Shown: positions 1,874 to 36,605 of the stretch, one piece after another | Layout of the letters: every line of letters starts with the position of its first letter | Position numbering within the stretch: the first letter of the stretch is position 1 | Origin: a virus | Taxonomy: Duplodnaviria > Heunggongvirae > Uroviricota > Caudoviricetes | Direction: 5' to 3' (one strand) | Length of the DNA stretch: 42,445 nucleotides | Virus record (IMG/VR): IMGVR_UViG_2693429518_000021 | Made by a program: the position numbers and the translations under genes | The notes under the pieces: model-generated | The model's database searches: none | Told to the model about the DNA's origin: nothing | What the model saw: the letters and a program-made list of their open reading frames with translations, nothing else

Positions 1874-2070
1874 TACTGGCTGCGACACTTTTGAATAAAA
1901 GCGTCGACATTTCGGCGCTCATAACGAACTACTTTTGCACTGAAACGAATTGGTGCCAGGATAGCCCGATGACGATGCTTAATATTCCACTCACATAGCG
2001 TTTTCTGTGTAATACCTAACTTTTGGCATACTTCATCTGGGGTGAGTAAATCGTCGGGTTTCTCGCTCAT
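1870..2070 (-). CDS. Small DNA-binding protein, AlpA/Xis-like (helix-turn-helix)
   Basis: 66 aa; motif LLTPDEVCQKLGITQKTLCEW resembles AlpA-family prophage regulators/excisionases; start overlaps the helicase stop (ATGA), suggesting translational coupling. Confidence 0.55.
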   Translation of the reverse strand: MSEKPDDLLTPDEVCQKLGITQKTLCEWNIKHRHRAILAPIRFSAKVVRYERRNVDAFIQKCRSQY

Positions 2071-3461
2071 GCTATACCTCTCTTTTTCATGGCATCGAGC
2101 AGGATGTCCTGCACTGTTCGTTTTGAGTTGCGCCGCTCCATCACCATTTCGTCCATAGTGTCGGCCGCAATAATGTGGTGAATAAATACCGGACGATTGT
2201 GTCCGGCCTGTATCTGCCTGGTGGGGCCGATACGTTCAATAATTTGCTGATACTGCTCCAGGTCCCACCAGTGTGAGAAAAATACCAGTATGTTTCCGCC
2301 GTCCTGCATGTTCAGACCGTGGCCCGCGCTGGCTGGGTGTGCAAAGAGAACAGGAATCTTTCCGGAATTCCAGTCGCGCAGTGTCTGTGGATCTTGGTCG
2401 AGGTGACGACCGCGAGGGAATGCTTTAAGCAAGCGTTCAAGATCGTGTTTCCAGTGATAAGCAACCAGCACAGGTGCGCCAGCTGCTTCGGTCAGTATGC
2501 TGTCCAGCGCCTGCAGTTTGGTGTCATGCAGTTCTGACCAACTTCCGGTGTCGTCTGTGTATACTGCGCCACTGGCGATTTGCAGACACTTCAGTGTCTT
2601 TGCCGCGGCGTTTGGTGCTTCGATGCCTTCGCCATTCAGCTCGAGGAACATTTCCTTTTCCATTTCACGATACTGCTGACGGGCCTTCGGCGGCATATCC
2701 ACGCGGATTACGTTATGGATGGGGTCTTTGATATCGAACCAGTCGGCCGCATCCAGCGATAGGGTCACATCGGCTAACGCTCGCTGTATTTCACCCTGTG
2801 AGTGAGCAAACGGCTCCAGTTTGGTCCAGCTCTGCCCCGGAAACTGTATCGAGTTGAACCAGCGTGAGGTAAACGCGCCGTAAGTGCGTCCGAGACGTTG
2901 CCCCTGGTCCACAAACCACGCTTGTCCCCACAAATCTACCAGGCCGTTCGGTGCTGGCGTACCGGTGAGATTTATCCAGCGCCGGACATACTTATGCGCC
3001 ACTTTGCCCAGCGCCGCCGCGCGCTTACCACCACCTCGCAGCCGGAAGGATTTTAGCTGGGTGCTTTCATCTGGAATGACAGTACCGAACGGCCATCGTT
3101 CTCCCAATTCCTCAACCAGCCAGACAAGGTTATCGTAGTTGATGGTGAACACGCTTGCGTTGCTGTTCGCCAGCGCTGCAGAGCGCGCTTTGGCGTTACC
3201 AACAATCGGCTGCACCTCAATATTACGCAGATGCCCCCATTTAACAGCTTCATCAGGCCAGGTGCTTGCTGCAACGCGTAGCGGCGCGAGGACCAGCGCG
3301 GGGCGTGTTTCTGCTCCAGCCATGAAAAGATCTTCCAGCGTGGTGAGTGTCGCTACGGTTTTACCCATTCCCATACCTGCCCAGATGTTGCAGCGCATGA
3401 TGTCGATTTCGTGGTTGATAATGAGATCTTGGTAGGGGCGAGGGATAAAGTTTTGAGGCAT
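2067..3461 (-). CDS. Superfamily-2 helicase (SNF2/DEAD-like), phage replication module
   Basis: 464 aa; Walker A GMGKT, DEST (DExx-like) box, PYQ N-terminal motif, helicase C-terminal-like region. Confidence 0.8.
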   Translation of the reverse strand: MPQNFIPRPYQDLIINHEIDIMRCNIWAGMGMGKTVATLTTLEDLFMAGAETRPALVLAPLRVAASTWPDEAVKWGHLRNIEVQPIVGNAKARSAALANSNASVFTINYDNLVWLVEELGERWPFGTVIPDESTQLKSFRLRGGGKRAAALGKVAHKYVRRWINLTGTPAPNGLVDLWGQAWFVDQGQRLGRTYGAFTSRWFNSIQFPGQSWTKLEPFAHSQGEIQRALADVTLSLDAADWFDIKDPIHNVIRVDMPPKARQQYREMEKEMFLELNGEGIEAPNAAAKTLKCLQIASGAVYTDDTGSWSELHDTKLQALDSILTEAAGAPVLVAYHWKHDLERLLKAFPRGRHLDQDPQTLRDWNSGKIPVLFAHPASAGHGLNMQDGGNILVFFSHWWDLEQYQQIIERIGPTRQIQAGHNRPVFIHHIIAADTMDEMVMERRNSKRTVQDILLDAMKKRGIA

Positions 3462-3571
3462 TATAATCTCGCAAATTTTTGCTAGTTAGAGGTCGCACCA
3501 GTTGGCCTGGCAATTTTTACTATTCACAGCGAAGGTAACCCACAGGGTTAAATGTAAGGATAAACAATAAA

Positions 3572-4501
3572 ATGAGTGAATTTGGTGGTCAGCAACCCGC
3601 ACCCCAACAAGTACTGGACTTAGGTGTTAGTACTGAGGGGGTTTTTAACGAAATAGAAATGGGGGTTCTTCAGAACGGGATCTCCTACCTTACGCAAAAT
3701 GGGCTGGCTAGGATTTGCGGGGTGCATCGCAGTAATATCGCGGATATTTCTCGAGAGTGGGAAGAGAGCTTCCGCCACGGAGTTTTCGCTCGAGGGCGTA
3801 TGGAGTTTATCAGCTCATATTTACAGCGTGAGCAATATAATGAGCCGACTCTTTATATCCCAATCAACAAAGATGGGTCAGTCCATTATGCGTACCCAGA
3901 AGTAGTCTGTATGGCTATTCTGGAGTTCTACGCATTTGTATCTCAAAGTGCTGCAACTCCTACTGCGCTACAGTTTTTCCGCGAGCTATCCCGTGCGGGT
4001 ATGCGTGGTTACATCTATACAGCGCTTGGCTACATACCTGATGACCCTTGGCGTCATTACCACTCTCGTGTGTCAATCATGCATGGGGCAAACTCGGTTC
4101 CTGCTGGACACTTCATTGTATTCAATGAAATTGCTGGTTTAATGGTAGACCTCATCCATGCTGGATTAGCAGTAAACCAGTACACTGTACCGGATATCAG
4201 TGTGGGCCAGCACTGGGCTCGCTACTGGTCTTCTTCCAACTACGATGCGACGATTGGCCCAAGACAACGCTGCCAGCACTATTACCCTGAAGAATTCAAC
4301 CAATCCGCAAGTAATCCCCAAATGGTCTATGCATACCCTGATAATGCTTTAGCTGTATTCAGGCACTGGCTTCGTGCGGTTTATTTACCAACCAAATTCC
4401 CTAAATACCTTCTGAGTAAAGCAGGGCTATTGGCTGGCGGACAAACGGCGGCGTTGCAAATTATTGATAATTTTAATAATCGTGCATTACCTAACCCATA
4501 A
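3572..4501 (+). CDS. Hypothetical protein, possible Bro-N/KilA-N-like N-terminal DNA-binding domain; function unknown
   Basis: 309-aa ORF, the only plus-strand gene inside the minus-strand replication operon; tail-to-tail with the methyltransferase (stops 2 bp apart). N-terminal stretch FNEIEMGVLQNGISYLTQNGLARICGV resembles Bro-N/AntA/KilA-N-type folds (by eye, unverified). Confidence 0.6.
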   Translation: MSEFGGQQPAPQQVLDLGVSTEGVFNEIEMGVLQNGISYLTQNGLARICGVHRSNIADISREWEESFRHGVFARGRMEFISSYLQREQYNEPTLYIPINKDGSVHYAYPEVVCMAILEFYAFVSQSAATPTALQFFRELSRAGMRGYIYTALGYIPDDPWRHYHSRVSIMHGANSVPAGHFIVFNEIAGLMVDLIHAGLAVNQYTVPDISVGQHWARYWSSSNYDATIGPRQRCQHYYPEEFNQSASNPQMVYAYPDNALAVFRHWLRAVYLPTKFPKYLLSKAGLLAGGQTAALQIIDNFNNRALPNP

Positions 4502-4503
4502 TA

Positions 4504-5517
4504 TCAACAGATGAGGTCGTATCCTGTGCATTCCATAAACGAGCGGATGAATGTTGCGGCAGCTGGTGCGACTATCGCGTTGCCGTAGGCGCGCAGTCGT
4601 CCCACTCTGGAGGTAATCCCATGAGCCAACGGGAATGTGCCGGATTCAACTGGCCGCCAGCGACCATCCCGGCAGAGGAGCCAGTCAGCATCATCCCAGC
4701 AGCTGTTAATCGTATTGGGCCGCCGAGGGTCGTTCCCCGTTTGGTATGATTGGCCGCTGCGCCCTCGCCACGAACTTTGTTGTTGTCGACCGTCGTCACT
4801 GTCGGCCATCCCGCTAATCTGGATAGCCCCGCTAAGGTTTCTAGACCGCGTTTTGTCTCCGGCTGTGGGTTTGTGTTGCAGGTTGGGGTGTACCACCCCG
4901 CCAGGTGAGCAAAATCCCGCAGGGAGCTGTGTAGCGTGTTGCCGGACGGTCGACGATCTCCAGACATCTTCCTCAATGCTATTGAGGCGCTTTCGCCACC
5001 GCTGTGGTCGCTCGCCGCTGGCATCGGCCACCCAATACGCTCTATCTCGGATATGCGGGGCACCGACGCCCGCAGCCGGAAACGGGACAAGCCCAAAGGC
5101 GTAGTCCACTGCTTCCACGTCAGTTTGTACAAGATCGAACCAGGCATTGACTCCCGCAACCTGTTCGCCAAATACCAGCTCAGGGCGTCGCTCGCTGATG
5201 AGGTGGAATAGCGCTGGCCATAGGTGCCGCTCGTCATCAAATCCAGCGCCTTTACCAGCCGAGCTGAAAGGCTGGCACGGGCAACTTCCTGTCCAGACCG
5301 GTTTGTTATCCGGCCATCCGGCCAGACGCAGAGCATAAGACCAGACGCCGATCCCGGCGAAGAAATGGCACTGTGTGAATCCGCGCAAGTCGTCTGGTGC
5401 GACATCTTCGATACTCCTTTCATCAACTTCACCCGGGGCGATATGACCCGCAGCAATAAGGTTACGCAGCCATTGTGCTGCGTTAGGGTCTATTTCGTTG
5501 TAATAGGCTCCCCGCAC
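4504..5517 (-). CDS. DNA (cytosine-5)-methyltransferase
   Basis: 337 aa with C5-MTase motifs in canonical order: motif I FFAGIG, motif [11 protein letters not shown] (catalytic Cys), motif VI FGEQV (ENV-like), motif VIII IRDRAYW, motif X AYGNAIV. Confidence 0.85.
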
Positions 5518-5810
5518 AATATCCCCTCCAGATTTTTGCTATCCAGCACCACTACGGTAAAGCCCAGCGCGCGCAGTCGTCCGTGTTCACGCAGTTGGCC
5601 GGCGCGTGGTGTCTTGCCGGGTGCTTTACATTCAACGAAAACGATACGACCACCGGGTAGCAGAACAATGCGATCTGGTACCGAGCGGCGACCGGGAGAT
5701 ATAAACTTAAAGGCCACTCCGCCAGCTTTTTTCACTTCAGCGACGAGGTGCTTTTCGATAAGGCTTTCACGTTCATAGGCCATCTGAATCCCACTCTTCA
5801 AAAAGCACAT
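5490..5810 (-). CDS. VRR-NUC domain nuclease (PD-(D/E)xK)
   Basis: 106 aa; VPDRIVLL ... IVFVECKAPGK gives the D ... E-x-K signature; typical partner of phage PolA/helicase modules. Real start may be the internal MAYERE Met. Confidence 0.6.
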   Translation of the reverse strand: MCFLKSGIQMAYERESLIEKHLVAEVKKAGGVAFKFISPGRRSVPDRIVLLPGGRIVFVECKAPGKTPRAGQLREHGRLRALGFTVVVLDSKNLEGILCGEPITTK

Positions 5811-6072
5811 TCAATACCAGTTTCTCTGCCAACGCGTTTTCTGCACGTGCGCCGGCAGAGTACTCCCACTCTTTGAGCATATAAATCGTATCGGCACAGC
5901 GAAGCATTGCGAGGCAGATGTCCATGTACTGAGCCTGTGTCAAACCATCGGGTAAAGTTGCGGGGTTAAGCACAACATATCCCTTGTCCGTTAGCCTCTT
6001 TGCTGCGGAATGAAAGGCCGGGCGGTTAAATTGCTCGTAACCGCTCATCGGCCCGGCAACGTAAACGATCAT
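5773..6072 (-). CDS. DUF4406 / nucleoside 2-deoxyribosyltransferase-like protein
   Basis: 99 aa; N-terminal IVYVAGPMSGYEQFNRPAFH resembles the DUF4406 family signature (from memory). Confidence 0.45.
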   Translation of the reverse strand: MIVYVAGPMSGYEQFNRPAFHSAAKRLTDKGYVVLNPATLPDGLTQAQYMDICLAMLRCADTIYMLKEWEYSAGARAENALAEKLVLNVLFEEWDSDGL

Positions 6073-6284
6073 TCTTCGACCGCCTTACGCTTTTCACGCA
6101 TATTCTGCATCAGGCAAAAATCAGATCTGCGTTCACTCCATTCCTGATTCAGTTCGTGATGTGATTCGCGGTTGGCTTTTGCCCAGACCTTCGCTGCCCG
6201 GTCATATTCGCCGGATTGTTCAAGTCGCAAAGCCTCCCTTGCAGCCCTGTAATAAAGTGGATTGTCCCGGTATTTAAATGACAT
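6069..6284 (-). CDS. Hypothetical small protein
   Basis: 71-aa ORF wedged between PolA and the DUF4406 gene on the same strand, with overlapping/abutting stops and starts. Confidence 0.4.
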   Translation of the reverse strand: MSFKYRDNPLYYRAAREALRLEQSGEYDRAAKVWAKANRESHHELNQEWSERRSDFCLMQNMREKRKAVEE

Positions 6285-6289
6285 AGGAG

Positions 6290-8353
6290 TTAATCCTTAC
6301 GGTAGTGGTACGCCTCAAAACCGCCAGCGTTCAGTGGGATATCTGGCGCCCATTCGGGGTTAGTGGAGAGAAGCGCGGAAAGCGCTTTATCGTTGAAATC
6401 TTCTGTGTCAGGTGATTCGGTGATCACCTCGTCGTGTACCGTCAGCACAATGCTGTAACCGGCATCTTCGATAAGCGGCATGTTTCCGGCCAGAACGTCG
6501 CGGGCGGCCGCCTGGGTGACGTTCTCCACCAGCTTTCCGCCGTAGGTTTTGAGTCGTTGCCATTTACGCGAATAAGAGTTAACACCCATGTAGGTGATAT
6601 TCCCTTGTTCGATAACCGGAGACGGGTAGCATACAGCGCGTCCGGATGGTAGCTGTATGCGCAGCCACGCGCCATCGCGGCGGATTTTAAGATAACCGCA
6701 ATACAATGTTTTTTGCGGTGTGGCGATTGCTGTGCGGACGGTGCACTCCAGTTCGTACCAGAAATCACAGGTCGCGGGATGCGCCCGGCGCCAGAGACGT
6801 TTAAGTGAGTCGCAGGCGATAAATACCCGTTCAGAAAGCCCGTAGGTCGATTTACGTTTAACCGATTCGTCGTACCAGCTTTTCGCCTCGCGGATAACAT
6901 CGCGGGGAATGTTTGGCAGTGCGGCGTTCGCCAGCCCGTCGAGATCGAGACCGTAAACCAGAGCAAAAGTGATGAAAGCCGATACACCTCCTCCATAACC
7001 CAGACCGAGTTCCATGACTTTACCGATCTGACGCATGTGTTTATCAACATCATCTGGTGCAATATCGAAAGCTTTTGCATACGCCAGTTTATATAAGTCC
7101 GGACCCGTTCCGGCGTCGTACTCTCTGAATGCATTCAGTTTCCATTCTTCTCCCGCCAGCCATGCCAGCATACGGCCTTCAATGTTCGACAAGTCACTTA
7201 CCACCAGCTTTTTGCCTGTTGGCGCGATAATGCAGCCACGTAACGCTGAACTGGTTAGTTCCATGATATTGTCAAACAGCAGGTCTGCACATCCGGCTTT
7301 CAGTGCTTCGATGCCTTCGTCTATTTGTTCCTGTTTTAGTGAAGGGCGGGGAAGGTTCTGGGGCTGGAATAGCCGTCCGGCCCAACGACCGGTACGTGAC
7401 GCCCCGCAGAACTGTAGCGTACCGCGTAAGCGCCCGTCGTGGCTTACGCCTTTCATCAGTGCCTTGTATTTACTGGTGCTGGTAGTACTGGCCTGCAGGC
7501 GGATAGCCAGCAGTTCTTTCACGGCAGATGGTAAATCGGGGTCGGCAATACGACGTTCCAGAGTACTGCGTTGCATGTCTGGTAGCTCCACACCGTAGGA
7601 TTCAACAATGTGCTTAATCAACGCGTCTCGTTGTGTGGCTGCCTGCACTTCGCCATCAGTCATTTCCTGTGTACGCTTTGCCAGGCGCTTTTGTTCCTGG
7701 TCTACCGCGTCGATCGCAGCGCGTGCGAGTTCCACGTCCATGCAGACGCCCCGGTCATTGATCTGCTGATCACGATGCCAGAGCGCCAGTTCTGTCCCCT
7801 GATAATTCCACTTCGGCAGACGTTTATAGACTTCGCGCATTGCCTCGATATCCAGTCCGGCGTAAGCAACAAAGCGCCGCCATTCTTCCGGGTGGGTTTT
7901 GCTGGTGGCCCGGCGCAGTTTGCTGTTTTTCGGGCGTGGCTTACAGAACAGCTGGATCAGCGCTTTACCTTCTTTGTCCTTCGCTTTGTCTTGCGGGACG
8001 CCTAGTACTTCGCAGAGTTCCCCCAGAGCCCCCGGGAGACCGTGCGCCAGCGCCTGCACCATCGTGTCGCGCCAACGTTCGACTGGCGGTGCCAGTCGCG
8101 GCATTGCATAACGCAGGACGGTGCGGTCGAAGTGAGAGTTATGAAAATAAAGCAGGGTTTCAGGGGCTGCGATTGCTTCGTATAAGCCGTGTGGAATACC
8201 ACCACCGGCAGTGATATCCCATACGTTTACTGGCCCGTCGTTGATAGCCCATGCGAACAGCATCACTTCAACGCCTTCGGCATACGCATGGGTACCGTTC
8301 GTAATAGGGATTTCGCAATAGGTTTCCAGGTCGCCCCATAGTATATTGGACAT
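6290..8353 (-). CDS. DNA polymerase, family A (with 3'-5' exonuclease domain)
   Basis: 687 aa; exonuclease DxE (WGDLETY), polymerase motif A ([19 protein letters not shown]-like), motif B ([16 protein letters not shown]), motif C (VHDE). Confidence 0.85.
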
Positions 8354-8399: not shown

Positions 8400-9029
8400 A
8401 TGCATATGATCCAATACTTGATTGACCATACAGAGCATCTGGAGAAAATAGCTGGATATATTTTTTCATGTTTGATTGTTATGGGAGTCTGGATAAGAAA
8501 GATCATTTTTAATTATAAGTATAAAGAGCCTAAATATGTCAAGAAGTTAATTTTATATTTAGTTAAGTATGAACGTTATCTGGATAAGGAGGATAAGAGT
8601 GCCATAGAAAAAAGAATAAATGATAAAATTATTCGTGATGCGCTGAAATTGCAATCTTCTTATAACCGAAGTGATGTTATTTACATTTGCAATAGATTAG
8701 AAAAAAGACAGTATATAAATCAGGTGATTAAGCTTCAGAATTATATAGAGAAAGATAACGGAGTGTTTTTCATCAATGTTAATTTTTCAGGTTTTTTATT
8801 TATTATTAGTCGTCTGTTTTCCTTTCTGTGTTTTGTGCTGTTTATCCTTTTTTCTATTATCTGCATTATTTCCATAGGGCAAAATGAAGGCCTTTTAAAT
8901 TATCTTGTGTATATGGTTATGACAATAGTTTTAGAGACTGTTGGTTTTTGGATGTATGATACTTTCCCGTCTAAGAAGAAGATCTGTGAACTAAATAAAG
9001 AATTGAGGAAGATTAAGATTCCTGAGTGA
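8400..9029 (+). CDS. Hypothetical membrane protein (AT-rich accessory gene)
   Basis: 209-aa ORF, visibly AT-rich with Lys/Ile/Asn/Tyr-rich codon usage unlike neighbours; predicted TM segments (IAGYIFSCLIVMGVWI; FLFIISRLFSFLCFVLFILFSIICIISI; LVYMVMTIVLETVGFWMY); antisense to the polymerase/SSB operon. Confidence 0.6.
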   Translation: MHMIQYLIDHTEHLEKIAGYIFSCLIVMGVWIRKIIFNYKYKEPKYVKKLILYLVKYERYLDKEDKSAIEKRINDKIIRDALKLQSSYNRSDVIYICNRLEKRQYINQVIKLQNYIEKDNGVFFINVNFSGFLFIISRLFSFLCFVLFILFSIICIISIGQNEGLLNYLVYMVMTIVLETVGFWMYDTFPSKKKICELNKELRKIKIPE

Positions 9030-34706: not shown

Positions 34707-35054
34707 ATGAAACGATGGATATTTTCATTGCTGGCATTAGTGTCTGTTGGTGTAAGTGCAAACACCATAACGATGCAATGCGGCAACTTTCGTATGGATG
34801 CGATCCCTGATTCATTATTTAAAATCAATGGCGAAACAGTAACGTCCCAAAAAGTAAAAATGTTGGGTAAAGACGGTACAGGCATGCAGATCAAAATGGA
34901 CCTGATGCCTGCCAAAGATGGCAACAATTATGGGTTCGAGTATATCCATCGACCTGGCACTAAAACGCGTTTCCTGAACGTCCAGTTGTTGCAGAACAGC
35001 ATGGATGCTCCGAAAATTATTGGCTCTTTCCCGTGTAAGAAAGTTGTTGGTTGA
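34707..35054 (+). CDS. Secreted (periplasmic) small protein, accessory
   Basis: 115 aa; N-terminal signal peptide MKRWIFSLLALVSVGVSA with an AxA-type cleavage site; no convincing lipobox. Confidence 0.55.
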   Translation: MKRWIFSLLALVSVGVSANTITMQCGNFRMDAIPDSLFKINGETVTSQKVKMLGKDGTGMQIKMDLMPAKDGNNYGFEYIHRPGTKTRFLNVQLLQNSMDAPKIIGSFPCKKVVG

Positions 35055-35061
35055 TTGAGAA

Positions 35062-35616
35062 ATGAGCAAGCGTTCGTCAATAGATACAACAGAAGAACAA
35101 AAGGCAATTGAGACTATAGGCGCTGATTTTATTTCGTCATATTATAAAGATAGATATGAGGAAGCAAAATCAACATATCGTCGTCTTGAGGACAAAGTTA
35201 ACTACCTTCTTGCTATTTTAGCTGTAGAAACCTCTGCTCTACTGGCTGTATTTGGGACTGTTGATTTCAAAAGTGGGCTAAAGAGTAATTGGTTTTTAAC
35301 ATTATCTATACTTTGTGCATATCTGTGCTTTGTTTGTATTGTTATGTGCTTTTTTTTCCTATGGCGTACTTGGGGACTGAAAGATATACCAAAAATGCCT
35401 ATTCATAAGCGAAAAGAAGAGCATGATTTTTTATTTTACGGTGATAAAATTAAAACGCTTAGATACCATATGTTTCAGTATGGTAAAGCTGTTGAATTGA
35501 TCGAAAGTCTTCATAAAGAAAAGGCAGTTTACGCTCGTTATCTTTTTGAAGGAATTGCGTTATCTTTCGGTTTTTTCATATTATCGGTTACTTTTCTTTT
35601 GATAAATAAGGCATAG
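35062..35616 (+). CDS. Hypothetical inner-membrane protein, accessory (AT-rich)
   Basis: 184 aa; TM segments (YLLAILAVETSALLAVFGTV; FLTLSILCAYLCFVCIVMCFFFLW; GIALSFGFFILSVTFLLI); codon usage visibly AT-rich. Confidence 0.55.
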   Translation: MSKRSSIDTTEEQKAIETIGADFISSYYKDRYEEAKSTYRRLEDKVNYLLAILAVETSALLAVFGTVDFKSGLKSNWFLTLSILCAYLCFVCIVMCFFFLWRTWGLKDIPKMPIHKRKEEHDFLFYGDKIKTLRYHMFQYGKAVELIESLHKEKAVYARYLFEGIALSFGFFILSVTFLLINKA

Positions 35617-35619
35617 TTG

Positions 35620-35790
35620 ATGACAACATCAAATAATGACAACTCACAGCAAAGCAAGCCAACGCAAGCAGAGCAATCCATGGCTGATTATGAAAGCAGT
35701 ATAATGCTTGAAGTACCTTTTGGTGGATTGGATTACATGACAGAAAGCGTTAAAGAACCTGAGTTGGACAATTTTAAACAGAAAAAATAA
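35620..35790 (+). CDS. Hypothetical small acidic protein (56 aa), accessory
   Basis: ATG 35620 to TAA 35788..35790 (MTTSNNDNSQQSKPTQAEQSMADYESSIMLEVPFGGLDYMTESVKEPELDNFKQKK); below the ORF-track size cut-off; followed by a terminator. Confidence 0.35.
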   Translation: MTTSNNDNSQQSKPTQAEQSMADYESSIMLEVPFGGLDYMTESVKEPELDNFKQKK

Positions 35791-35811
35791 ACTTAGAGTT
35801 GTTCCTGTAGA

Positions 35812-35838
35812 CCCGCCACTTGGCGGGTTTTTTGTTTT
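35812..35838 (+). terminator. Intrinsic terminator (CCCGCC-ACTT-GGCGGG plus T-run) closing the accessory cassette
   Basis: Perfect 6-bp GC stem followed by TTTTTTGTTTT. Confidence 0.55.
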
Positions 35839-35852
35839 CAGGAGTTTATCAA

Positions 35853-36605
35853 ATGGCCATATCAGACCAGACTCGTAGCGGCGACCTTGCCGAAACATTC
35901 AAATCCGAGCGGGAAACCACAAAGAACCAGATCCGCGTCGCTTTGCCTGGCATCGTTCAGTCATTCGATCCTGACGCGGTGACGGCGGTTGTGCAGCCTG
36001 CTATTCGTTCGGTTGAAACCGACAACGACGGCAACCGCGTAACCAAAAATTACCCGCTGCTGGTGGATGTGCCGGTGGTATTTCCGCGCGGCGGCGGCTG
36101 CACGTTAACTTTCCCGGTAAAAGCCGGCGATGAATGCCTGGTGATTTTTGCCGATCGCTGCATCGATTTCTGGTGGCAGAGTGGCGGGATACAGGAGACG
36201 GTCGATGACAGAATGCATGATTTATCGGATGCGTTTTGTATTGTCGGTCCCCAGTCGCAGGCAAGGAGGATTAGCGGTATTAATACCAGTGCCACACAGT
36301 TGCGTAGTGATGACGGCAGCACCTATTTTGAGCTTAATCCTGATACCAGGAAAATTAAAATTGTCGCTCCGGGTGGTCTTGATGTGGTTGCCCCTCTGGC
36401 TGATTTTTCTGAGAAAGTAACCATTCATGGCCTGTTAACCTGGATGGGGGGCATGGTGGGGTCTGTGGTTTCTGGTGTGGCTTCAAAAATCACTGGTGCT
36501 GTTGAGTTTTTGGGGAGCGTGAAGGCTAACGGCAAGCCAATCGATGATACGCACACTCATGGCGGTGTTCAGCGCGGTGGAAGCAATACCGATAGGGTAA
36601 ACTGA
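35853..36605 (+). CDS. Baseplate assembly protein V-like (spike)
   Basis: ATG 35853 (MAISDQ...) preceded by CAGGAG; C-terminal HTHGG motif resembles P2 gpV/Mu gp45-type spikes; the track start at 35820 lies inside the upstream terminator. Confidence 0.6.
   Translation: MAISDQTRSGDLAETFKSERETTKNQIRVALPGIVQSFDPDAVTAVVQPAIRSVETDNDGNRVTKNYPLLVDVPVVFPRGGGCTLTFPVKAGDECLVIFADRCIDFWWQSGGIQETVDDRMHDLSDAFCIVGPQSQARRISGINTSATQLRSDDGSTYFELNPDTRKIKIVAPGGLDVVAPLADFSEKVTIHGLLTWMGGMVGSVVSGVASKITGAVEFLGSVKANGKPIDDTHTHGGVQRGGSNTDRVN

Follow-up and report, generated by a model that had tools for sequence, protein, structure and literature searches.

A conserved reading frame nested in a prophage C5-cytosine methyltransferase gene and its probable role as a second enzyme subunit

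Background

M.EcoHK31I, a C5-cytosine methyltransferase of Escherichia coli that recognises YGGCCR, is made of two polypeptides (Lee, Kam & Shaw 1995, via PMC2836561 and PMC3404938). According to the accounts in these two articles, the enzyme needs both chains, and the beta chain is coded wholly within the alpha gene in a different frame; alpha (309 aa) holds motifs I-VIII, the recognition domain and motif X, and beta (176 aa) holds motif IX. Another two-subunit C5-methyltransferase, M.AquI (Karreman & de Waard 1990, cited in PMC3404938), is outlined there as an enzyme divided within its variable region; its two polypeptides have to associate and follow each other in sequence, alpha carrying motifs I-VIII and beta the rest of the variable region together with motifs IX and X. 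In this work, we analysed a 42,445-nucleotide (nt) stretch of Caudoviricetes DNA (IMG/VR record IMGVR_UViG_2693429518_000021; hereafter the window), in which a 1014-nt C5-methyltransferase gene (4504..5517, minus strand) contains a second open reading frame (ORF) on the same strand. The annotated frame is referred to as alpha and the nested one as beta.

As in M.EcoHK31I, the phage beta is nested in another frame of the same strand, and alpha likewise holds the core motifs, together with a putative motif X. M.EcoHK31I beta bears motif IX, whereas the phage beta has an element that is only motif IX-like, by pattern. The two loci differ in that the recognition domain of M.EcoHK31I is reported to lie in its alpha chain, whereas the variable region of the phage alpha is disordered and neutral and the conserved repeats lie in the 277-aa beta. 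Moreover, the phage beta starts upstream of motif IV and the 176-aa M.EcoHK31I beta is reported to hold motif IX only, and M.EcoHK31I belongs to a restriction-modification (R-M) system, whereas the phage gene is an orphan. The nested architecture is already known from this one characterised enzyme, and the division of labour appears different here; if M.EcoHK31I proves homologous, the phage alpha/beta pair would be a new member of that family. Unlike in M.AquI, the putative motif X stays on the phage alpha, and beta is nested almost entirely inside alpha.

The monomeric enzymes M.HhaI, M.HaeIII and Dcm (PF00145) share with the phage alpha the PCQ motif, ENV (GEQV in the phage), R-x-R and the FxGxG that binds S-adenosylmethionine (AdoMet). 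Compared with these enzymes, the phage alpha is without an in-frame folded small domain and has motif II/III-like elements before motif I. The spanin genes Rz and Rz1 are the classic phage example of a nested +1-frame pair whose products cooperate, Rz1 being about 60 codons long. That overlap of about 60 codons compares with 277 here, and the spanins are unrelated proteins acting in a different process.

Results and discussion

Both ORFs are conserved in related phages

The two ORFs of this gene span 337 and 294 codons, lie on the same strand and are offset by +1. Alpha (337 aa, 4504..5517, minus strand) has a GTG start at 5517, and a Shine-Dalgarno sequence, GGAGGGG (5523..5529, minus strand), is read from the sequence 5 nt upstream of it. 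Beta is open from stop to stop between 4572 and 5456; from its ATG it would encode 277 aa in the +1 frame of alpha (4572..5405, minus strand), ending with a TAG at 4572-4574. It is present in the ORF list of the window, and RefSeq leaves it unannotated. The sequence-only reading had taken the methyltransferase for an ordinary single gene and overlooked the second ORF inside it.

Eighty IMG/VR loci were fetched by beta similarity alone, and 78 were analysable, two loci with a disrupted alpha being left out; this choice brings no bias on the openness of alpha and possibly favours intact beta mildly. Both ORFs were open at the same +1 offset in 78/80 loci, and beta was open in 80/80. Eight checked GenBank phages likewise keep both ORFs. 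The two frames are open in the Burkholderia phages PhiBt-E264.1 and BcepC6B, the coliphages K1ind3, Bas76 and SCS92 and the Vibrio phage Marilyn, and also in Rhodobacter phage RcWhiteOak, Erwinia phage SNUABM_08 and EBPR siphovirus 2. The layout is kept at a GC content of 0.49-0.55 in K1ind3, Bas76, SCS92 and Marilyn (Marilyn, 0.49).

Across 75 unique sequences, internal stops numbered 0 in the beta frame, 2 in total in the alpha frame within the beta span, and 1130 in the third forward frame (8-22 per locus, median 15). When synonymous codons of the constrained frame were shuffled, each locus was expected to have 1.6 beta-frame stops in the N region (probability of an open frame, 0.18) and, in the middle region, 2.55 alpha-frame stops (0.076); in 64 loci, 0 were observed in either case. 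Protein searches returned more than 6000 beta-like clusters, all of them lacking a Pfam domain, as well as more than 8000 alpha-like clusters, and beta was present in 236 phage records. Chimeric proteins running from alpha into beta are sporadic in the protein database (P0013, P0015, P0017, P0018 and P0138). They were rejected as natural single-chain forms, since no two share a junction and each occurs only rarely, a pattern that errors or pseudogenes would produce.

Some loci depart in detail from the common layout. In EBPR siphovirus 2 (JF412297, 3-2330), a large insertion in alpha, intein-like by eye, splits the PCQ motif ('...TGSCPCF...VVHNCQPFS...'), and beta begins within the last part of the insertion and has another leader. 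The methyltransferase gene of E. coli EL361 (NZ_CP193497, 4605-5619) is 1015 nt long and flagged by RefSeq as a frameshifted pseudogene. The alpha/beta pairs of K1ind3, Bas76 and SCS92, which are virulent phages of the Kagunavirus type, are shorter (alpha about 265-309 aa), and their gene order (PolA, resolvase/nuclease, methyltransferase, SNF2 helicase) is that of the prophage. In PhiBt-E264.1, an enzyme of the amino-methyltransferase type with an SPPYW motif is encoded just downstream of alpha/beta (1813-2979 of locus L001), so that this phage has two different methyltransferases in tandem.

Alpha has the catalytic core of a C5-methyltransferase

Alpha matched PHROG 363 'DNA methyltransferase' over its full length (E-value 2.6e-90) and Pfam PF00145 (DNA_methylase) over residues 76-171 only (E-value 8.6e-12), and its residues 71-171 matched motifs IV-VIII of M.HhaI (E-value 1.8e-12). 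The best Foldseek matches of its AlphaFold model were M.HhaI, M.HaeIII and DNMT1 (E-values of about 1e-6). In the AlphaFold2 (AF2) model, residues 1-170 and the helix at 317-331 were confident, and the core folds like M.HhaI. Motif I, FFAGIG (residues 52-57), lies in a confident Rossmann-type core. Motif IV, PCQ (80-82), was aligned with the PCQ of M.HhaI by hidden Markov model (HMM) and was invariant in 68 homologues. GEQV (117-120) aligns with ENV of M.HhaI, the Asn being replaced by Gln and E118 being conserved, and HIRDR (155-159) aligns with QKRER, with R157 and R159 conserved. These results show that alpha has a C5-methyltransferase core. Additionally, Y311, G312, N313 and A314 of YGNAI (311-315) were invariant in the 68 homologues. 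The region of motif X and the C-terminal helix (4525..4587, minus strand; helix 317-331, mean of the predicted local distance difference test (pLDDT) over the block, 88) lies mostly downstream of the beta stop; the assignment of YGNAI to motif X is pattern-based, this region having been aligned by no HMM.

Between motif VIII and the C-terminus, alpha showed no conserved or folded segment. Residues 184-277 (4687..4968, minus strand) form a stop-free linker that is disordered (AF2 pLDDT 32-45) and unalignable between relatives, and neither an in-chain target-recognition domain nor motif IX was found between VIII and X. Because this stretch is disordered and has a ratio of non-synonymous to synonymous substitution rates (dN/dS) of 1.2-1.3, alpha has no recognisable target-recognition domain.

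Beta has its own conserved start signal

The ATG of beta (5403-5405) spans the Asp-Val codons of the alpha motif DERSIEDV. Its Shine-Dalgarno sequence, AAAGGAG (5414..5420, minus strand), lies 8 nt upstream and is made of alpha codons E33-R34-S35. The ATG was found 42 codons before PCQ in 75/77 unique loci, and the alpha Asp codon at this position was GAT in 76/77, against a background of 31% in the same genes. At the alpha Arg codon in the Shine-Dalgarno sequence, AGG occurred in 40 and CGG in 21 of the 77 loci (background 3% and 19%, respectively); AGG use was thus 52% versus 3%, and AGG or CGG was found in 61/77 versus 22%. The following alpha Ser codon was AGT in 48 and AGC in 15 of the 77, with AGT at 62% versus 5% in the background. 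Together, the Arg-Ser codons (A/C)GG-AGY spell GGAG, which is followed by a spacer and the ATG. The upstream stops of the beta frame sit at varying positions just before the ATG. The conservation of both the Shine-Dalgarno sequence and the ATG favours an independent start of beta over frameshifting.

Selection alternates between the frames

Selection was estimated with our own implementation of an OLGenie-type estimator, in which changes were sorted as synonymous or non-synonymous in each frame over all sequence pairs, with a codon bootstrap. Alpha codons 1-36, located before the overlap, served as the negative control; dN/dS was 0.07 for alpha and 1.1-1.4 for the alternate frame, and the alpha-synonymous sites were saturated (p 0.61-0.70). 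When the third frame was used as the alternate, dN/dS was 0.8-1.3, with intervals including 1.

Beta residues 2-45 (5271..5402, minus strand), a leader with AF2 pLDDT below 50, overlie alpha from motif I to the region before PCQ. Here, dN/dS was 0.07-0.10 for alpha and 0.94-1.27 for beta. From about beta residue 46, the alpha-synonymous rate drops about three-fold, from 1.3-1.8 to 0.4-0.7. Beta residues 46-125 (5031..5270, minus strand), comprising a helix and a beta-hairpin and including the sequence RLRAS, overlie alpha motifs IV-VIII and are doubly constrained. For alpha, dN/dS was 0.30-0.39 in this stretch and 0.30-0.32 over beta residues 70-125, where beta had 0.40-0.49, with confidence intervals below 1. 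The helix and hairpin at residues 70-115 were modelled confidently (AF2 pLDDT 75-88) and are the best part of the beta model.

The pattern is reversed in the variable-repeat region of beta (4722..5030, minus strand), a putative target-recognition region with three modules resembling G-W-P-T-P (beta residues 126, 171 and 200), where dN/dS was 1.2-1.3 for alpha and 0.18-0.19 for beta. The same DNA codes for most of the unconstrained alpha linker, and the middle of alpha evolves neutrally. Relatives carry 1-6 modules (mode 3), and changes in their number keep the beta motifs.

Both frames are constrained again in the 3' stretch (4575..4721, minus strand), where beta carries the motif IX-like element, assigned by pattern. 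Over the last approximately 50 beta codons, dN/dS was 0.26-0.43 for alpha and 0.25-0.39 for beta, compared with 1.30 for the third-frame control. This double constraint accounts for a 139-nt block (4574-4712) that megablast found to be 87-89% identical to Burkholderia and Pseudomonas phages, far above the rest of the gene. In the DNA, the motif IX-like element of beta directly precedes motif X of alpha, and in a low-confidence model it is a predicted helix. Aligned as a whole, beta is conserved in its N-terminal part and strongly so at its C-terminus, with modules that vary in number in between. Constraint therefore alternates along the gene: it acts on alpha in the N-terminal part, on beta alone in the middle, and on both frames across alpha motifs IV-VIII and at the 3' end. 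These data show that both ORFs exist, are conserved and are under selection.

A probable two-subunit enzyme and the alternatives

A two-subunit orphan 5-methylcytosine (m5C) methyltransferase, with a catalytic alpha and a target-recognising beta, is the best reading of this locus and, in our judgement, a probable one. The 1014-nt gene would give rise to two proteins from nested same-strand ORFs. Alpha, starting at GTG 5517, would supply the core that binds AdoMet and performs catalysis (motifs I and IV-VIII), together with motif X near its C-terminal end. Beta, translated in the +1 frame from its own ATG and Shine-Dalgarno sequence, both embedded in the DERSIEDV codons of alpha, would give the small (target-recognition) domain and the motif IX-like element, both missing in alpha. 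The first approximately 45 residues of beta are an unconstrained leader over the conserved N-terminus of alpha, and alpha residues of about 184-277 an unconstrained, disordered tether over the conserved G-W-P-T-P repeats of beta. By analogy with M.EcoHK31I, alpha and beta would assemble into one orphan m5C methyltransferase, which would methylate the phage DNA, plus host DNA in the lysogen, and thereby blunt restriction. We infer the translation of beta, the alpha-beta complex, the recognition role of beta, the m5C activity and its specificity, and the anti-restriction role. Judging by known phage orphan methyltransferases, protection of the phage's own DNA from restriction would be the most plausible role.

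Several points weigh against this enzyme. The translation of beta and its binding to alpha are things that we infer, and the likeness to M.EcoHK31I is drawn from published descriptions. The C-terminal 'RPVEPGTFPL..G' of alpha could be a degenerate motif IX, and with a motif IX of its own, alpha might act alone at low specificity. The C-terminus of beta, which we presume to correspond to motif IX, was likened to it by pattern recognition. Searches of beta against methyltransferase small domains in Pfam, at E-value thresholds of 0.01 and 10 and including C-terminal fragments and an artificial IX+X hybrid, returned nothing, and beta had no match in PADLOC. A profile search of the Protein Data Bank (PDB) gave only chance matches to dipeptidyl aminopeptidase (E-value 0.11), hhalign against E. 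coli Dcm gave a probability of 0.1%, and Foldseek with the low-confidence model found nothing. The AF2 model of beta is poor overall (mean pLDDT 57). Additionally, the dN/dS values come from our own code, and the sequence pairs are phylogenetically non-independent, so the confidence intervals are approximate. Beta does match PHROG 31772 and PHROG 1008, both labelled 'DNA methyltransferase', and these may simply be families of beta-frame ORFs.

The failure to detect homology between beta and methyltransferase small domains in Pfam, PADLOC or PDB sequences or by fold is what one would expect if beta were a real, selected protein with a function outside methylation, such as a regulator, an anti-defence protein or a DNA-binding protein, overprinted to save space. 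It would also suit this explanation that alpha itself has motifs I, IV-VIII and X and possibly a degenerate motif IX. However, nothing in alpha is folded or conserved from motif VIII up to the C-terminus (disordered, dN/dS of about 1.2-1.3), so that it has no recognisable target-recognition domain, the motif IX-like C-terminus of beta sits where motif IX would precede X in the DNA, and in M.EcoHK31I, the sole characterised nested case, beta is a methyltransferase subunit. We therefore regard a separate function for beta as unlikely. Much less probable still is an alpha-only orphan methyltransferase with beta as a by-product of GC-rich sequence and alpha conservation. RefSeq, through its Prokaryotic Genome Annotation Pipeline (PGAP), does annotate alpha alone, and the loci are fairly GC-rich (0.49-0.66), which lowers the frequency of stop codons; however, beta dN/dS is 0.18-0.19 precisely where alpha is unconstrained, not one of 64 loci has a stop in the beta frame, with 1.6 per locus expected, and the third frame is full of stops, the beta start signal is conserved through strongly biased alpha codons, and changes in repeat number keep the beta sequence motifs. 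Both the selection tests and the start signal thus contradict the by-product explanation.

Programmed frameshifting, by which a single chain would join the alpha core to the beta repeats and motif IX, with a possible shift back for motif X, would restore the canonical motif order (core, repeats, IX and X), and the sporadic alpha-to-beta fusions in the database would fit it. This route is nevertheless quite improbable, if slightly less so than the by-product explanation: the conserved Shine-Dalgarno sequence and ATG of beta itself lie 125 codons ahead of the repeats, the unconstrained middle of alpha is kept open, and the segment upstream of motif X is selected in the alpha frame. Furthermore, the fusion junctions vary between proteins, each of which is rare, and neither a slippery heptamer nor a stop-codon-stimulated +1 site was seen at either junction, by eye only and with no formal search. 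Finally, the sequence-only reading had offered two other alternatives, namely a base-modification pathway formed with the neighbouring DUF4406 protein, or one half of an R-M pair with the ORF at 3572-4501. The genes are indeed adjacent, the DUF4406 gene is co-oriented, and DUF4406 belongs to nucleoside 2-deoxyribosyltransferase-like families, but the ORF at 3572-4501 is BstA, DUF4406 is adjacent in no more than 2/9 same-module relatives, further modification genes are missing from the early region, and the corresponding slots differ in phage vB_EcoM-689R2. Both alternatives are hardly credible on this evidence.

If the two-subunit enzyme is real, about 614 residues of protein are obtained from 1014 nt, and each frame swaps functional sequence with stop-free filler, namely the beta leader in one frame and the alpha tether of about 100 residues in the other. 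The beta modules (1-6) could then expand, contract and diverge, changing the target specificity and leaving alpha unharmed, as alpha would need only an open frame there, and few same-strand gene overlaps conserved in bacteria and their viruses would be longer. That split enzymes with a specificity subunit overprinted on the catalytic gene extend across thousands of phage and prophage clusters of Proteobacteria seems to us an even call. Same-strand overlaps of 277 codons are rare, and frame-switching selection within one gene provides an internal control; the alpha/beta gene thus offers a clean natural model of how genes that overlap can go on evolving. Temperate as well as virulent phages of Escherichia, Klebsiella, Salmonella, Burkholderia, Pseudomonas, Xanthomonas and Vibrio carry such orphan methyltransferases. 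If specificity does reside in a separate modular beta, predicting which restriction systems are evaded would require beta, not alpha.

Annotation of the two frames

RefSeq annotates alpha only, and some phage GenBank records annotate beta only (e.g. PhiBt-E264.1). In several GenBank phage records, beta is labelled 'methyltransferase', 'metabolic enzyme' or 'hypothetical'. The K1ind3 record has both ORFs, as a 'C-specific methylase' and an 'Mte8-like protein' (ORF29); the origin of the 'Mte8' label could not be traced in the literature or by protein search. GenBank records of the K1ind3, Bas76 and SCS92 type disagree on which frame is the methyltransferase. As pipelines call one frame only, one protein is lacking from thousands of phage and prophage annotations. 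We found no description in the literature of a nested gene in this phage methyltransferase family.

Gene neighbourhood in the prophage

The window is a temperate phage integrated beside yfhL in E. coli, with yfhL at the window start followed by the integrase. Over positions 3400-6400, it shares 99.7% identity with prophages of E. coli O103:H2 12009, enterotoxigenic E. coli (ETEC) H10407 and others. The early and replication genes are on the minus strand, with the methyltransferase within the replication module. The SNF2 helicase lies at 2067-3461 (minus strand), and the BstA abortive-infection gene at 3572..4501 (plus strand). Beyond the methyltransferase come the PD-(D/E)XK/VRR-NUC nuclease (5490..5810, or from a RefSeq start at 5784; minus strand), the DUF4406 protein of 99 aa (5773..6072, minus strand), a small protein of the ANR (AraC negative regulator) family (6069-6284, minus strand; NCBIfam NF033650, E-value 9e-20) and PolA (6290-8353, minus strand). 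The order beyond PolA is DUF2815, DUF2800, a CI-like repressor and a primase-helicase, and then lysis, terminase and structural genes follow. The co-orientation of an orphan C5-methyltransferase with VRR-NUC, DUF4406 and PolA within this module, as described in the sequence-only reading, was confirmed for every gene.

The methyltransferase is flanked by BstA, on the opposite strand, and by the VRR-NUC nuclease. The nuclease ORF matched PHROG 93 'endonuclease' (E-value 1.7e-30) and is labelled VRR-NUC/PDDEXK nuclease in RefSeq; it had no Pfam match at an E-value of 0.01. It adjoins alpha/beta in just 9/78 related loci; it belongs to the replication module and is no restriction partner. No cognate restriction endonuclease was found beside the methyltransferase, and neither neighbour is linked to it across relatives; the methyltransferase is an orphan.

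The ORF at 3572..4501, suspected earlier to be the restriction half of an R-M pair, turned out to be full-length BstA and not a restriction enzyme. Its residues 10-303 matched profile positions 4-289 of 292 (PADLOC PDLC02356, E-value 2.5e-110), and it also matched PHROG 6287 (E-value 6e-98). BstA is a prophage abortive-infection protein that stops the replication of incoming phages, with no nuclease role, and is neutralised by a DNA element within its own locus (Owen et al. 2021, PMC8585504). In the prophage, this anti-BstA (aba) element would be expected close to the 5' end of the BstA gene. BstA was found in 3/9 same-module relatives. Three loci (L006, L007 and L009) are without it, and their helicase gene follows the methyltransferase after 8 nt. 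Its absence from close relatives indicates that BstA is an inserted accessory gene.

DUF4406 matched its Pfam profile almost completely (residues 1-90 against positions 1-90 of 91; PF14359, E-value 1.1e-33) as well as PHROG 355 (E-value 2e-43), and no solved homologue was found by sequence search. The VRR-NUC/PolA/SNF2 replication module is common to 9/78 loci, and DUF4406 lies beside it in 2 of these 9, which makes it adjacent in only 2/78 loci overall. It was absent from the remaining 69 loci, save for two distant, non-adjacent matches. In the related phage vB_EcoM-689R2, the BstA slot and the DUF4406 slot are both occupied by other genes, and no other base-modification genes were found in the early region. 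Because DUF4406 is rarely adjacent and other modification genes are missing, the proposed pathway of methyltransferase and DUF4406 is unsupported. DUF4406 is an optional cassette with no detectable link to the methyltransferase, and BstA and DUF4406 are accessory cassettes, independent of each other, in one variable slot of the replication module. The prophage thus gives no hint of a pathway to hypermodified bases, and the ORF adjacent to its methyltransferase is a known defence gene.

The genes of this region are tightly packed. With the longest ORFs, the nuclease overlaps the start of the methyltransferase by 28 nt (5490-5517) and the 3' end of DUF4406 by 38 nt (5773-5810), the latter overlap being 12 nt with the RefSeq nuclease start at 5784. 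Such packing suggests translational coupling along the operon. The gene of the ANR-family regulator (6069-6284) lies inside the phage replication operon, and the same prophage was found in ETEC H10407 and in O103, O45 and O55 strains from humans and cattle. The presence of an ANR gene in a prophage of such strains may be relevant to virulence regulation.

Additionally, a low-GC region (8400-9029, plus strand; about 0.38 versus about 0.53 in the flanks) lies between PolA and DUF2815 and contains an opposite-strand ORF of 209 aa that matched PHROG 10579 (unknown function). Its C-terminus looks hydrophobic, and it has the look of an accessory (moron) gene. A second low-GC island (35001-36000, 0.386), located in the tail/late region, may be another accessory cassette.

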